Assembly: GCA_043807885.1 (NCBI GenBank)
Contig: JAZDFN010000019.1
Location: 1-48,301, forward strand
Direction: 5' to 3'
Length of the DNA: 48,301 nucleotides
Source: a bacterium
GTDB lineage: Bacteria > Patescibacteriota > Patescibacteriia > UBA2591 > JAZDFN01
The notes under the pieces were generated by a model. The model did no database searches. It was given only the letters and a program-made list of their open reading frames with translations, and was not told the DNA's origin. Shown here one piece after another: positions 16,048-39,306 of the stretch (position 1 is its first letter; each line of letters starts with the position of its first letter). Position numbers and translations under genes: made by a program.

Positions 16048-17292
16048 ATGGAAGACCAAAAATCCTTAAAAAAATTTTTACTGCTGGCTTTGGTCATTAG
16101 CTTGCTGGTCGGCGGTTTGGCCGGCTTTTCCGCCGGCTTGGGTAGCAGTTTGCTTTTAAGCGATTATATTTCGCCTTGGCTGGTTAAGCAGGGCATTAAT
16201 TTGCCGGTAGCCAAGCCCCAGCCACAGACTGAAGAAAATTCGCCAGTGGGCGGACAGGTCGGTCAGCCGGCCGGCGATACCGTGGTCAATGCCGTCCGAA
16301 AAGTCAAGCCGGCCGTGGTTAGTATTGTGGTTACCAAGGATCTGAGCCAGTACCAAGGCGCCACTTCCCCTTTTGGCGATTTTTTCGGTTTTAATCTCCC
16401 CCAAATCCAATTACCACAGGGCGAGCAGCAAATCGGCGGCGGCACCGGTTTTATCATCTCGGCTGATGGCCTGATTTTAACCAATAAACATGTGGTCATT
16501 GATTCGGAAGCGAAATATACAGTGGTGGCTAATGATGAGCAAAAATACGAGGCCAAGATTTTAGCCACTGACCCATTTAACGATATCGGCATTTTGAAAA
16601 TTGAAGCCAATGGCTTGCCAATCGTGACTTTAGGCGACTCGGATAAGCTGGAGGTCGGCCAGACCGTCATTGCCATTGGTAATTCCTTGGGCGAATATCA
16701 GAATACCGTCACCCAGGGCATTATTTCCGCCATTGGCCGGCGAGTGACCGCTGGCAATAATCTGGGCAGCAGCGAGGTTTTGGAAGAAGTGATTCAGACC
16801 GACGCGGCGATTAATCCGGGCAATTCCGGCGGGCCGTTGATTAATCTGGCCGGTGAGGTAATCGGGGTTAATACCGCCATTTCCCAAGCCGGTCAGTCAA
16901 TTGGCTTTGCCATTCCGATTAATCAAGCCAAAAAGACCGCGGAGAGCGTGAAAAAATACGGCCGGATTATCCGGCCCTATCTGGGCATCCGTTATGTGCC
17001 GATTACGCCGGCTTTGGCGGAGAAAAACAAATTAAACGTTGATTACGGCGCTTTGATTGTCCGGGGACAAAACGCCGGCGAATTGGCCATTGTGCCGGGC
17101 AGTCCGGCGGACAAAGCGGGTTTGGAAGAAAATGACATTATTCTGGAGATTAACGGCCAAAAAATTGATTCCGGGCGCTCCTTAGCCAAAGAAATCGCCA
17201 AATTCAACCCGGGCGACAAAATTAAATTGAAAATCCTGCACGACGGAGGTGAAAAAGAAGTGGAAGCGGTTTTGGAGGAGTATAAAGAGTAA
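16048..17292 (+). CDS. htrA: HtrA/DegP-family serine protease with PDZ domain
   Basis: N-terminal TM, trypsin-like core (LTNKHVV, DIGILKI, GNSGGPLINL catalytic Ser motif), C-terminal PDZ-like segment. Confidence 0.9.
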   Translation: MEDQKSLKKFLLLALVISLLVGGLAGFSAGLGSSLLLSDYISPWLVKQGINLPVAKPQPQTEENSPVGGQVGQPAGDTVVNAVRKVKPAVVSIVVTKDLSQYQGATSPFGDFFGFNLPQIQLPQGEQQIGGGTGFIISADGLILTNKHVVIDSEAKYTVVANDEQKYEAKILATDPFNDIGILKIEANGLPIVTLGDSDKLEVGQTVIAIGNSLGEYQNTVTQGIISAIGRRVTAGNNLGSSEVLEEVIQTDAAINPGNSGGPLINLAGEVIGVNTAISQAGQSIGFAIPINQAKKTAESVKKYGRIIRPYLGIRYVPITPALAEKNKLNVDYGALIVRGQNAGELAIVPGSPADKAGLEENDIILEINGQKIDSGRSLAKEIAKFNPGDKIKLKILHDGGEKEVEAVLEEYKE

Positions 17293-17310
17293 TTATTGCG
17301 ACAAATGCGT

Positions 17311-17474
17311 TGGTTCAAATCTCCTGATTTGAACCATTATGTTCTATCCGTCGGTTCAATTCTCTGAATTGAATCGCATTGAGAGACGCAAAATTTTGCG
17401 TCTCTAGGGGTTTGGGTCAGGAGACCCAAACCAAAATCGCAGAACATTAAGGTTCAGGTCAGGAGACCTGAACC
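17311..17474. repeat. Array of five 24-nt hairpins between convergent htrA and glnA; four belong to one family with covarying stems
   Basis: 17312-17335 GGTTCAAATC-TCCT-GATTTGAACC. 17353-17375 GGTTCAATTC-TCT-GAATTGAATC. 17382-17405 perfect palindrome AGAGACGCAAAATTTTGCGTCTCT. 17409-17432 GGTTTGGGTC-AGGA-GACCCAAACC. 17451-17474 GGTTCAGGTC-AGGA-GACCTGAACC. Confidence 0.85.
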
Positions 17475-17486
17475 AACGCTATGGTT

Positions 17487-18803
17487 TTATAAATATTTTT
17501 TCACTTCCCACGGCGTGACTTCCAAACGCGCTTCGTCAATGTCGGTTTTGGCCGCCTGGATAATCGCCTGGAAAGCGTGTTTGCCTAAAAGATTTTTCAA
17601 TATTTCATCCTGTTTTAATTCTTCAATCGCTTCAATTAAATTAGCGGGCAGGGTTTTTATGCCTTTGCTGATTCTTTCTTCTTCAGTCAGTAAATAAACA
17701 TTTTCTTCAACCGCTAACGGCGGGGTGATTTTATTTTTCACGCCGTCCAAACCGCAGGCGAGCATGGCGGCAAAAGCCAGATAAGGATTAGCCAAAGGAT
17801 CCGGGCATCTTAATTCCAGCCGGGTGGCAGAATCGCGGCCTTGGCTGATTTTGGGAATCCGGATCAGGGCCGAGCGGTTGGTCTGGCCCCAGGAGATATT
17901 GACCGGCGCTTCATAGCCCGGCACCAGCCGTTTGTAGGAATTAACCGTGGGCGCGACAATGGCCGATAAAGCGCGGGCGTGCTTCAGTTGGCCAGCCAGA
18001 AAATTATAGGCCAATTCAGACAATTGGTATTTGTCATCAGCTTGGTAAAAAGCGTTGCGGTTGTCCTTAAAAAAGCTTTGGTGGACATGCATGCCCGAGC
18101 CGTTAATGCCCTGGAGGGGCTTGGGCATAAATGTGACTTTGAGCGATTCTGGGCCGGCATAGGCCTTGAGGGCGGATTTGAGCGTCAGGATATTATCCGC
18201 GCTTTTTAAGGCCTTATCATAGCGGATATCAATTTCATGCTGGCCTTCAGCCACTTCGTGATGGTAGCTTTCGCCTCTAATATCAAAAGCCCTTAAAGAA
18301 TCCATGACTTTCCGGCAGATGCGCGAGGCCCGGCTGGTGGGCGTATGGTCAAAATAGCTTTTGCGGTCATGGGGCACCAAGCAAGGCAGTTCGCTTCTTT
18401 CAAACAGGAAAAATTCCAGTTCCGCGGCCGTGTAGTATTCGTAGCCCAACTCGGTCACTTCCTTTAAGGTTTTTTTCAAAATAAACCGCGGGTCGCCGTC
18501 AAAGGGCAGGCCATTGGGCAGATAGATGTCACAGATGAGCCGGGCGGACTTGAATTCGGTGTTGGTCCAAGGCAGAACGGCAAAAGTTTCCAAATCCGGC
18601 TTGAGGAGCATGTCGCTTTCGCAGATGCGGGCGTGGCCTTCCACTGACGAGCCGTCATACCAAGCGCCGGATTCAACGATATCCCGGAAGCGGTGCGACT
18701 CCACTTCCACTACTTTGATGCGGCCGGTTAAGTCGGAAAATTGCAGGAGCAATACCTTGACGCCCTCCTGTTTGATTAGGTCCTCAATTTGTTCATAGGT
18801 CAT
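17487..18803 (-). CDS. glnA: Glutamine synthetase (type I, about 438 aa)
   Basis: MTYEQIEDLIKQEGVKVLLLQFSDLTGR..., FMPKPLQGINGSGMHVHQS, NSYKRLVPGYEAP, RLELRCPD. Start taken at ATG 18803, since the longer track ORF (to 19010) adds a non-homologous extension running into the divergent promoter region. Confidence 0.9.
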   Translation of the reverse strand: MTYEQIEDLIKQEGVKVLLLQFSDLTGRIKVVEVESHRFRDIVESGAWYDGSSVEGHARICESDMLLKPDLETFAVLPWTNTEFKSARLICDIYLPNGLPFDGDPRFILKKTLKEVTELGYEYYTAAELEFFLFERSELPCLVPHDRKSYFDHTPTSRASRICRKVMDSLRAFDIRGESYHHEVAEGQHEIDIRYDKALKSADNILTLKSALKAYAGPESLKVTFMPKPLQGINGSGMHVHQSFFKDNRNAFYQADDKYQLSELAYNFLAGQLKHARALSAIVAPTVNSYKRLVPGYEAPVNISWGQTNRSALIRIPKISQGRDSATRLELRCPDPLANPYLAFAAMLACGLDGVKNKITPPLAVEENVYLLTEEERISKGIKTLPANLIEAIEELKQDEILKNLLGKHAFQAIIQAAKTDIDEARLEVTPWEVKKYL

Positions 18804-18827
18804 AGGTTTGAGATTAATAATTAATAA

Positions 18828-18858
18828 ATAAAAAGCGAAAAGCCCCTTGGAGGGGTTT
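18828..18858 (-). promoter_or_regulatory. Terminator-like hairpin plus U-tract inside the glnA 5' leader (possible attenuator)
   Basis: Minus strand reads CCCCT-CCA-AGGGG followed by CTTTTCGCTTTTTATTT. Lies between the predicted promoter and ATG 18803. Confidence 0.35.
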
Positions 18859-18864
18859 TCTTTT

Positions 18865-18892
18865 ATTTTATCAGAAAGCTTAACCCGGGCAA
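18865..18892 (-). promoter_or_regulatory. Candidate glnA promoter with extended -10
   Basis: Minus strand TTGCCC (18892-18887), 16-nt spacer ending TGA, TAAAAT (18870-18865). Confidence 0.4.
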
Positions 18893-18995
18893 GAGGGGAG
18901 GTGTGGATAAATTGAAAGAAGTTTTTGGGAGATAATTTTTGAGCCGGGCTTTTTTTATTGACTTCCGCCCCATAGCGTGGGAAAATAAAAGGACC

Positions 18996-20339
18996 ATGAA
19001 TCAACAGCAAGCTTTGGAAATATTAAAACTGGGCCACAACGCCTATCTCACCGGCCCGGCCGGTAGCGGGAAGACGTATCTATTAAATCAATACATTGCC
19101 TTTTTAAAGAACAAAAATGTCAATGTGGGCGTCACCGCTTCCACTGGCATTGCCGCCACCCACATGAACGGCCGGACCATCCATTCCTGGAGCGGATTGG
19201 GCATCAAAGATCAATTGCGCAAAAAAGACATCGAGGACATGTTAAAAAAATCATATTTGGTCAGCCGGTTAAGAAGCGCCGGGGTTTTGATCATTGACGA
19301 GATTTCCATGTTCCATAATTTCCATTTGGACATGGTTGACGAGATTTGCCGGTCTTTAAGGGGATTGGACCTGCCTTTCGGCGGATTACAGGTAATCCTT
19401 TGCGGGGATTTCTTCCAATTGCCCCCGGTCAACCGGAACGGCTCGGGTTCGGATTTTGTCGTTAATTCGCAAGCGTGGCAAGAGATGGATATTAAAATTT
19501 GTTATTTAGACCAGCAGTTTAGGCAGGCGGACGCCGAGTTTCTGAAATTGTTGACTGAAATCAGGCAAAACCAAATCAGCGAGGAGTGCTTGAACAATCT
19601 GCTGACTAGGATTAAAGAGCCGGTTGACGGTCCGCTCACGCCCACCAAGCTTTACACCCACAATGCGGATGTGGACGCGGTCAACAATCTGGAATTGGCC
19701 ATGATTAAAAATGATCCAATGACTTATGAAATGACTTCCCGGGGCAACAAAAATTTGGTCAGGATTTTAAAAGACAGCTGTCTGGCGCCCCAAACTTTGA
19801 TATTGAAAGAAGGCGCTTTGGTGATGTTTGTGCAGAATAATTTTGAAAAGGGCTATGTCAACGGCACCTTGGGCAAAATTATCGGTTTTGATAACAGTAA
19901 TCTGCCAATTGTGGAAACCAAGTCAGGGGACCGGATAACGGCCAGCCCGGGTATTTGGACCATAGAAGAAGGGGGATCAATGATTGCCAAAATCAGCCAG
20001 ATCCCTTTAAGATTGGCTTGGGCCATTACCGTCCACAAGAGTCAGGGCATGAGTTTGGATTCAGCCGAGATTGATTTGAGCAAAGCATTTGCCCTAGGCA
20101 TGGGCTACGTGGCGCTTTCGCGCGTCAGGACTTTGGAGGGCATAAAACTGTTGGGTATTAATGATATGGCCTTAAAGGTTGATCCGGCCATCGTAGAGCT
20201 GGACCAGGAATTCAGCCGGCAGTCCCAAACGCTCGCCGAGCAGTTGGGCAAAATGAAGGCAAAAGCAAAGAAACAGAAGCAGGAAGAGTTTTTGAAGAGG
20301 GCAAGGTTAAGTATTAGGGGGAGGGGGTTTTTGGGGTAG
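18996..20339 (+). CDS. PIF1/RecD-like SF1B ATP-dependent DNA helicase
   Basis: Walker A GPAGSGKTYLL, Walker B VLIIDEISM, ILCGDFFQLPPV, C-terminal ITVHKSQGMSLD and ALSRV motifs. Start at ATG 18996 (AAAGGA 6 nt upstream). Confidence 0.85.
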   Translation: MNQQQALEILKLGHNAYLTGPAGSGKTYLLNQYIAFLKNKNVNVGVTASTGIAATHMNGRTIHSWSGLGIKDQLRKKDIEDMLKKSYLVSRLRSAGVLIIDEISMFHNFHLDMVDEICRSLRGLDLPFGGLQVILCGDFFQLPPVNRNGSGSDFVVNSQAWQEMDIKICYLDQQFRQADAEFLKLLTEIRQNQISEECLNNLLTRIKEPVDGPLTPTKLYTHNADVDAVNNLELAMIKNDPMTYEMTSRGNKNLVRILKDSCLAPQTLILKEGALVMFVQNNFEKGYVNGTLGKIIGFDNSNLPIVETKSGDRITASPGIWTIEEGGSMIAKISQIPLRLAWAITVHKSQGMSLDSAEIDLSKAFALGMGYVALSRVRTLEGIKLLGINDMALKVDPAIVELDQEFSRQSQTLAEQLGKMKAKAKKQKQEEFLKRARLSIRGRGFLG

Positions 20340-39260: not shown

Positions 39261-39306
39261 TATACCGGTAGTACGCATGCATGGGGTGCCCGCCCGCCTT
39301 GACTGC

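Follow-up and report, generated by a model that had tools for sequence, protein, structure and literature searches.

A probable REP/REPIN-type hairpin cluster between convergent htrA and glnA genes, and its cognate RAYT, in a Patescibacteria genome

The DNA between the convergent genes htrA and glnA of a Patescibacteria genome most probably (probability about 0.85) holds one copy of a non-autonomous, BIME-like repeat of the REP/REPIN type. This reading rests on the anatomy of the element, its dispersal through the genome, the identity of a REP-associated tyrosine transposase (RAYT) encoded between hairpins of the same kind, the association of hairpin and enzyme in other genomes, and an empty site in a relative.

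The window is the whole stretch of DNA that was analysed, 48,301 nucleotides long. It comes from a genome of 621,650 bases in 58 contigs (45.8% G+C, 92% complete), which are cited below by number; the window lies on C19. Patescibacteria are named as the source of the nearest homologues of its proteins. A first-pass annotation of the window had offered three readings for the region: an RNA element, a protein-binding array, or REP-like repeats. Because the hairpins form a dispersed family with a cognate RAYT, the third is the correct one of the three; the reading as an RNA element is not supported.

Anatomy of the element

The stop codons of htrA and glnA are 194 nt apart, and five hairpins lie between them. 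Hairpin A begins 19 nt past the htrA stop codon, and hairpin D begins 12 nt past that of glnA. The features are as follows.

16048 to 17292, plus strand: HtrA/DegP-type serine protease gene, left flank (Pfam Trypsin_2 and PDZ).
17307 to 17479, no strand: the whole composite REP cluster (REPIN/BIME-like), 173 nt, delimited by end-to-end alignment with four other genomic copies.
17309 to 17335, plus strand: REP unit A, unpaired head GTT (17309 to 17311) and hairpin 17312 to 17335, GGTTCAAATC-TCCT-GATTTGAACC.
17336 to 17349, plus strand: A-B linker ATTATGTTCTATCC, T-rich and containing CT, the counterpart of WTWAGGTTCTGC in the other copies.
17350 to 17375, plus strand: REP unit B, head GTC and hairpin 17353 to 17375, GGTTCAATTC-TCT-GAATTGAATC, with one G.T mismatch.
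17382 to 17405, no strand: central perfect palindrome outside the family, AGAGACGCAAAATTTTGCGTCTCT, a nested putative copy of a second REP family.
17409 to 17435, minus strand: REP unit C, inverted, hairpin 17409 to 17432, GGTTTGGGTC-AGGA-GACCCAAACC (loop TCCT on the minus strand), head TTT.
17433 to 17450, minus strand: D-C linker, TTAATGTTCTGCGATTTT in minus-strand reading.
17451 to 17477, minus strand: REP unit D, inverted, head GTT (complement of AAC, 17475 to 17477) and hairpin 17451 to 17474, GGTTCAGGTC-AGGA-GACCTGAACC (loop TCCT on the minus strand).
17487 to 19010, minus strand: glutamine synthetase gene glnA, right flank, convergent with htrA (Pfam Gln-synt_N and Gln-synt_C).

The hairpins are thus four related ones of 23-24 nt and an unrelated perfect palindrome, at the positions where the first-pass annotation had placed them. 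It had fitted all four related hairpins to one frame, GGTTnnnnTC-loop-GAnnnnAACC. Three match the frame exactly, where shuffled sequences lead one to expect 0.01 matches in the window, but B misses it by its G.T mismatch.

The arrangement differs from the one first described, which was tandem, with a single member reversed. With a strand-specific profile each hairpin scores in a single orientation, which is plus for A and B and minus for C and D. The element therefore consists of two head-to-tail doublets that face each other, two hairpins against two, with the central palindrome nested between them. This layout is that of the inverted pairs and alternating clusters of REPINs and BIMEs, as a variant of the simple inverted pair. 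As a whole, the 173 nt form an imperfect palindrome whose 39-nt outer arms (A side and D side) are 85% complementary. Its ends, set by alignment with the four other copies, read GTTGG...CCAAC.

Two further observations concern the sequences at this locus. The left arm of hairpin A, GGTTCAAATC, resembles a tRNA T-arm, which is taken as coincidence. The glnA reading frame as listed has a TTG start and 507 aa, and it overlaps the start of a divergent PIF1-like helicase reading frame (18939-20339). Since the first Pfam domain starts at residue 84 and the orthologue in the relative L128 has 438 aa, the true start of glnA is probably about 70 codons downstream.

Folding and compensated stems

Hairpins of this family have a 10-bp stem and a loop of 3-4 nt, and each folds as single-stranded DNA with -7.3 to -11.5 kcal/mol (-10.6 for A), as REP stem-loops. 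The composite folds with -57 kcal/mol (z = -12.5) as single-stranded DNA. Two folds are favoured: either the five hairpins form separately, with a sum of -51.4 kcal/mol, or A and D pair into an outer stem that encloses three inner hairpins, at the -57 kcal/mol just given.

The compensated stem variation that had been seen in the window extends to the whole genome. Across all 24 family hairpins (13 distinct), 99.2% of stem cells are paired, with changes on both sides at 5 of the 10 stem pairs, in 19 cells. None of 500 shuffles reaches the observed covariation score, and pairing falls to 43-56% when the partner columns are slid by one.

Variation is not spread evenly over the four positions. The stem of A is unchanged in all seven genomic copies, and that of B is constant apart from the mismatch in the window. 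D is identical in six of seven copies, the one on C52 being off by one base. The most variable position is C, where the stems of the five copies differ at four positions and every difference is compensated: GATTCGGGTC, GGTTTGGGTC, GATTTGGGTC and GGTTCAGATC each have a matching 3' arm.

Covariation had been taken as a sign of selection on structure, and this holds. The structure selected is most likely the single-stranded DNA hairpin as a transposase substrate, rather than an RNA.

A structured non-coding RNA gene, or an array bound by a host protein, would have a cellular function independent of transposition. E. coli BIMEs have been reported as sites for a nucleoid protein or gyrase. Both the very strong predicted folds and the stems that stay conserved while linkers drift would suit such an origin, and the RNA folds are about equally strong on the two strands (z = -14.4 and -11.4). 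Nevertheless this reading is improbable. Scanned at a permissive E-value, Rfam 15 gives no match at threshold for the region, the best being the MIR530 precursor model with 28.3 bits against a required 85. Only sub-threshold microRNA-precursor matches arise because positions 17307-17479, as an imperfect palindrome, look like any long hairpin. A promoter-like site is absent from the region, copies sit in unrelated contexts and both orientations, and the element is missing from 40 genomes of the same order and from the syntenic relative L128 (see below).

Dispersal in the genome

A genome-wide search for the hairpin frame, as the first-pass annotation had proposed, found it at six further places. 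In all, 24 family hairpins occur at seven sites on six contigs, always between reading frames, and account for about one third of the perfect 10-bp hairpins that the genome contains. They are thus dispersed and extragenic like REPs, though their number is low; Proteobacteria typically carry more than 100 REP units per genome. A profile search with nhmmer, using the 24 units, found no further degenerate copies in the genome.

Besides the window copy, full copies lie at C13:5880-6019, C26:19471-19618, C52:613-748 and C58:2199-2340. All five have the same A-B-C-D order. The other four are 75-84% identical to the window copy end to end, so there is no sign of recent movement, and similarity among them begins at (Y)GTTGG and ends at CCAAC(R). 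The window copy alone has an insert, of 31 nt, at the exact centre; it bears the fifth palindrome.

Once oriented, every one of the 24 hairpins shows a loop of pyrimidines (TCT, TCC or TCCT). The heads of the outer units A and D read (Y)GTT and that of B reads GTC, while the head of C is not conserved. A conserved unpaired GT[AG]G foot is absent from the family. Outer and inner hairpins are joined by a conserved T-rich linker, WTWAGGTTCTGC. A set of 113 oriented instances shows an enrichment of C and T at +9 and +10, counted from the end of the hairpin; the frequency of the head in this sample is circular, since the sample was selected on a GTT head.

The copies share no flanking context. Three of the five full copies (C19, C26 and C58) lie within 20 nt of a stop codon, while those on C13 and C52 directly follow the T-run of an ordinary GC-rich terminator. 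There is no consistent target-site duplication: a flanking direct repeat is missing from four of the five full copies, and the fifth has one of 19 nt.

That fifth case is the C26 copy, bracketed by AAAAATCAAAGAACGCTTT at C26:19452-19470 and 19641-19659. One of the two repeats is the true 3' coding end of a glycosyltransferase gene, whose product now ends in ...KAFFDFLKLKK*, while ...KAFFDFWKIKKEE* would be encoded by the other. It seems that the insertion duplicated the end of the gene and gave the protein a new tail.

The genome also holds a second dispersed repeat, which is GC-rich: GCCTGCCTCGC ... GTCAAGGCGGGC. Its 12-mer occurs 15 times, at 666-677 and 39292-39303 of the window, at C52:790-801 (about 40 nt from the REP element there) and at 12 other places.

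The cognate RAYT

Contig C18 carries the enzyme that belongs to the hairpins. A reading frame of 166 aa at C18:2839-3339, minus strand, lies between inverted two-hairpin doublets of the family (C18:2757-2827 and C18:3352-3434), so that REPs flank the gene as they do RAYT genes. Its motifs are NHLH and YIHDNP...WYWSS. The NCBIfam model NF047646 (REP_Tyr_transpos, REP-associated tyrosine transposase) matches over its full length with E = 1.7e-22 and 79.9 bits, 0.1 bit below the curated cut-off of 80; Pfam Y1_Tnp matches weakly, below threshold.

Structure prediction gives the same answer. An AlphaFold2 model built on 34 homologues has a mean pLDDT of 92.6, and its best match in the PDB is 4ER8, E. 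coli TnpA-REP with a REP hairpin (E = 1e-7, TM 0.68/0.69, 158 columns). Transposases of IS200/IS605 are the next matches. Residues H61, H63, Y132, N136 and P137 are invariant across the 34 homologues. The reading frame thus encodes a RAYT, the cognate enzyme of the hairpin family. It is a single copy and the sole HUH-Y1 gene of the assembly, which is 92% complete: searches with the protein and with PF01797 at E <= 1 each gave one match.

A CRISPR-like or TIGR-like array was also considered and rejected, from the features already described. The units lie in both orientations, and what looks "variable" in them is self-complementary; the arrays are scattered, and the RAYT is the sole gene associated with them.

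Hairpin and RAYT in other genomes

Public metagenomes contain more than 440 homologues of the C18 RAYT; many are from Paceibacterota, Moranbacteria and Parcubacteria, and several are named RayT by JGI. The homologues L010, L011 and L013, which are 66-70% identical to it, each lie between inverted GTT-GGTTCAnnTC hairpins with a tail like ATAAATTTCT.

When one genome per species was scanned for the pattern GTTGGTTCAnnTC-N3-4-GAnnTGAACC, at least 114 stretches were found. Among the matches listed, the nn positions are complementary in 131 of 149. These listed matches come from Patescibacteria, Myxococcota, Desulfobacterota, Ca. Anammoxibacter, Bacteroidota and Chloroflexota, and some genomes have many copies. 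Homologues of the RAYT adjoin the hairpin in listed stretches from Moraniibacteriota (71% identical), Anammoxibacter (40%), Opimibacter (35%), Saprospiraceae (33%) and Aquiflexum (30%). The hairpin flanks most of these genes on both sides, and only upstream in the cut or partial loci L071 and L021. More distant CPR RAYTs from relatives in the same order (L002, L003 and L004) have quite different hairpins. The type of REP thus follows the lineage of the RAYT: this hairpin stands beside homologues of 30-71% identity in at least three phyla.

The distribution of the hairpin is patchy. The hairpin is absent from all 40 same-order genomes searched, against 18 exact matches in G000 and 0 for a reversed control pattern, and none of the 40 has a RAYT more than 36% identical. 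Gene and repeat travel together.

Several side observations belong here. The GTT-GGTTCA-RR-TC hairpin is abundant in the Myxococcota MAG CAXXHC, in two Ca. Anammoxibacter MAGs and in several Desulfobacterota MAGs. Its 3' tail is specific to the lineage, for instance ACATCTGACnTTAACGCAACTCTG in Anammoxibacter, and many copies in delta-proteobacterial MAGs are "double-foot" (GTT...AAC). In the same-order relative L004 (G013:C12) the RAYT is 28% identical and has a hairpin of its own, GGTA-GGTTGGAGC-CTCT-GCTCCAACC. This hairpin lies at 1174-1195 and 1769-1790, both upstream of the RAYT gene and inside it.

Inverted ends, a length of about 140-170 nt, a lack of coding content and a dispersed distribution are also what one would expect of a MITE, derived from a DDE-type insertion sequence with terminal inverted repeats GTTGGTTCA/TGAACCAAC and moved by it. 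This origin is largely refuted and has a very small chance of being right. The supposed terminal repeats are simply the outer hairpin arms, and a target-site duplication of fixed length is absent. The only gene bracketed by such ends encodes an HUH-Y1 RAYT, not a DDE transposase, and in several phyla it is RAYT genes that these hairpins flank.

The htrA/glnA site

Two relatives allow a comparison at this site. L128, which has the closest HtrA homologue with known context (78% identical), shows the same order of a CobA-like gene, a small reading frame, HtrA and convergent GlnA. Its stop-to-stop gap measures 13 nt and holds no hairpin, against 194 nt in the window. In L254 (HtrA 69% identical) an ordinary terminator hairpin follows htrA, and the family hairpin is absent from the 54 nt available there. 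Thus, the cluster is not a conserved feature of the htrA/glnA pair, and the 13-nt gap speaks against the role specific to this locus that had been implied at first. The alternative to an insertion here is a deletion in the L128 lineage, which may have occurred, as the relative is a distant one at 78% protein identity. A search of metagenome contigs for a strain with an empty site, by an exact pattern with the htrA and glnA ends at most 30 nt apart, found none.

The cluster might nevertheless have been exapted as a bidirectional terminator, or as a protector of mRNA 3' ends, for htrA and glnA. This role is rather unlikely, and it would be compatible with a REP/REPIN-type repeat as an added function. 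REPs in E. coli do stabilise mRNA 3' ends and attenuate transcription (PMC2817692, PMC3733652). The outer hairpins lie close behind the stop codons, no other terminator is present between the two genes, and each transcript first meets an outer hairpin and then a T-rich linker. A lenient consensus scan flags A (plus strand) and D (minus strand) as terminator-like, with the tails TTATGTTCTA and TTAATGTTCT.

That scan counted linkers as tails, and the two flagged hairpins have 4 and 6 G-C pairs. The stems are rich in AT. The T-tracts are interrupted, in agreement with the initial remark that none of the hairpins has a strong U-tract. L128 manages with 13 nt and no hairpin, and the copies on C13 and C52 have a proper terminator beside them, GC-rich and with a T-run, so that the element is not needed for termination there.

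The central palindrome

The central palindrome had been singled out as different from the other hairpins. It is indeed perfect and outside the family, but it seems to belong to another REP family, of the "double-foot" GTAG kind. It is unique in the genome. Exact matches to the minus-strand 25-mer TAGAGACGCAAAATTTTGCGTCTCT (17382-17406) are present in more than 120 metagenome contigs, whose flanks are unrelated and whose GC content is 28-60%. In those contigs the palindrome is almost always G-...-AC, that is, GTAGAGACGCAAAATTTTGCGTCTCTAC. The feet of the window copy are degenerate, TG...AG, against the GT...AC of the consensus G-TAGAGACGCAAAATTTTGCGTCTCTA-C.

A motif search found RAYT-like reading frames (NH[VI]HG ... 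YIxxNP) in 13 of those contigs that carry the in-frame peptide VETQNFASL. Where the coordinates overlap, the palindrome falls inside the RAYT-like reading frame. This arrangement has been described by Quentin et al. 2018 (PMC6006769) in subclass 2.4, in which a "double-foot" GTAG REP is inserted in tnpA-REP genes. REPs of that subclass, for example GTAGAGACAAGGCATGCCTTGTCTCTAC, have the outer frame GTAGAGAC...GTCTCTAC in common with the window palindrome. They differ in that the window palindrome has mutated feet, is a single copy in its genome and lies in a genome with no second Y1 gene. From its sequence, we read the central palindrome as an orphan "double-foot" GTAG REP, nested at the centre of symmetry of the first family.

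A separate observation concerns the constancy of GTAGAGACGCAAAATTTTGCGTCTCTAC, which is the same letter for letter across rumen, gut, groundwater and other contigs (L131-L250). This is unusual for a REP.

Proposed mechanism

By analogy with E. coli TnpA-REP and IS200/IS605, the following steps can be proposed. The RAYT would bind the hairpins in single-stranded DNA, for example at a replication fork, with the unpaired GTT head used as a guide. It would cut and rejoin the DNA with the catalytic Y132 and the HUH residues H61 and H63, and the point of cleavage may lie within the conserved T-rich linker. The cluster would thereby be copied or moved to intergenic DNA without a fixed target duplication. 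Since only hairpins that fold would be substrates, changes in a stem would need compensation. The differences among the stems of A to D could prevent the 173-nt element from becoming one perfect long palindrome.

One copy would have landed between convergent htrA and glnA. The orphan hairpin of the second family may have been acquired at the centre later, or may have been carried already. Any influence on the 3' ends of transcripts would be secondary.

Tentatively, this account can be taken further. The four-hairpin element could be a true miniature IS200-like transposon, whose left end (A, B) and right end (C, D) are told apart by the RAYT through the identity of their stems. It would be part of a REPtron lineage that passes from phylum to phylum and keeps its hairpin GTT-GGTTCA-RR-TC almost unchanged. 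Both parts are possible, and doubtful as yet. If the first is true, it explains why the copies retain a distinct stem at each of the four positions. If the second is true, this REPtron stands in contrast to the vertically inherited, species-specific REPINs of Proteobacteria.

The probable nature of the repeat has some general consequences. A striking apparent RNA covariation would here be the DNA-level signature of a hairpin-cutting transposase, which matters for the annotation of intergenic "structured" elements in candidate-phyla-radiation genomes. The family adds a documented REP class without GTAG, together with its RAYT, in a genome of 0.6 Mb. The hairpin is common to Patescibacteria, Planctomycetota, Myxococcota, Desulfobacterota, Bacteroidota and Chloroflexota, which bears on the question whether the inheritance of REP/RAYT pairs is strictly vertical. 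In the searchable literature no paper was found that links REPs or RAYTs with Patescibacteria, and text searches for either hairpin sequence returned no relevant paper.

Comparison with known systems

Proteobacterial REPtrons. In E. coli and Pseudomonas, REPs, BIMEs and REPINs together with a RAYT (TnpA-REP) form "REPtrons" (Nunvar 2010 PMC2817692; Bertels & Rainey 2011 PMC3116915). The Patescibacteria family resembles them in its short extragenic hairpins with an unpaired 5' head, which occur in inverted pairs and clusters. It also has a single-copy HUH-Y1 gene between inverted hairpins of the same kind, and the predicted structure of its RAYT is nearest to 4ER8.

Several features set it apart. 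E. coli TnpA-REP depends on GT[AG]G to bind and to cleave at a CT dinucleotide (Messing 2012 PMC3479197; PDB 4ER8), whereas the head here is GTT or GTC. The inverted unit is a two-hairpin doublet, which results in a four-hairpin element with position-specific stems. There are only 24 units, and the host is a Patescibacteria with a 0.6-Mb genome. While proteobacterial REPs are species-specific, this hairpin is nearly the same across several phyla.

Heterodimeric REPs. Di Nocera et al. 2013 reported that REP dimers are often heterodimers with different stems, and suggested that perfect long hairpins are unstable. The position-specific stems of the present family fit this observation.

TnpA-Y1 subclass 2.6. 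In subclasses 2.6 and 3, Quentin et al. 2018 (PMC6006769) admit REPs that lack GT[AG]G. The first of these, which corresponds to Bertels group 5, is found mostly in Bacteroidetes and has "atypical secondary structures" of this sort. Their Table S1 gives for AFL82922.1 a 122-nt composite palindrome that contains GGTCCAAGTC-TGAA-GACTTGAACC-AAAC, a hairpin of the same type as the window family. The Patescibacteria system shares with this subclass the HuH motif NH[LIV]H, a Y motif near YIH[QN]NP and the lack of GT[AG]G, and the motifs of 2.6 (NHIH, WQQ and YIH[NQ]NP) are present in Bacteroidota homologues flanked by the hairpin of the window family. Unlike subclass 2.6, which has WQ, the Patescibacteria clade has YIH[DE]NP and a W followed by a variable residue and K. 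The C18 RAYT itself has NHLH, W-G-K and YIHDNP (the clade consensus is YIHENP), and its 166 aa compare with a median of 179 in subclass 2.6. Since it has YIH[DE]NP and lacks WQ, the Patescibacteria clade is best called 2.6-like, pending a tree.

IS200/IS605 elements. Like IS608 and ISDra2, the system described here combines an HUH-Y1 enzyme with subterminal hairpins, putative guide bases 5' of the hairpin foot and an absence of target duplication. Unlike them, its transposase is a single copy, its hairpins spread without the enzyme, and there is no tnpB. Finally, its left and right ends are built from one hairpin family.
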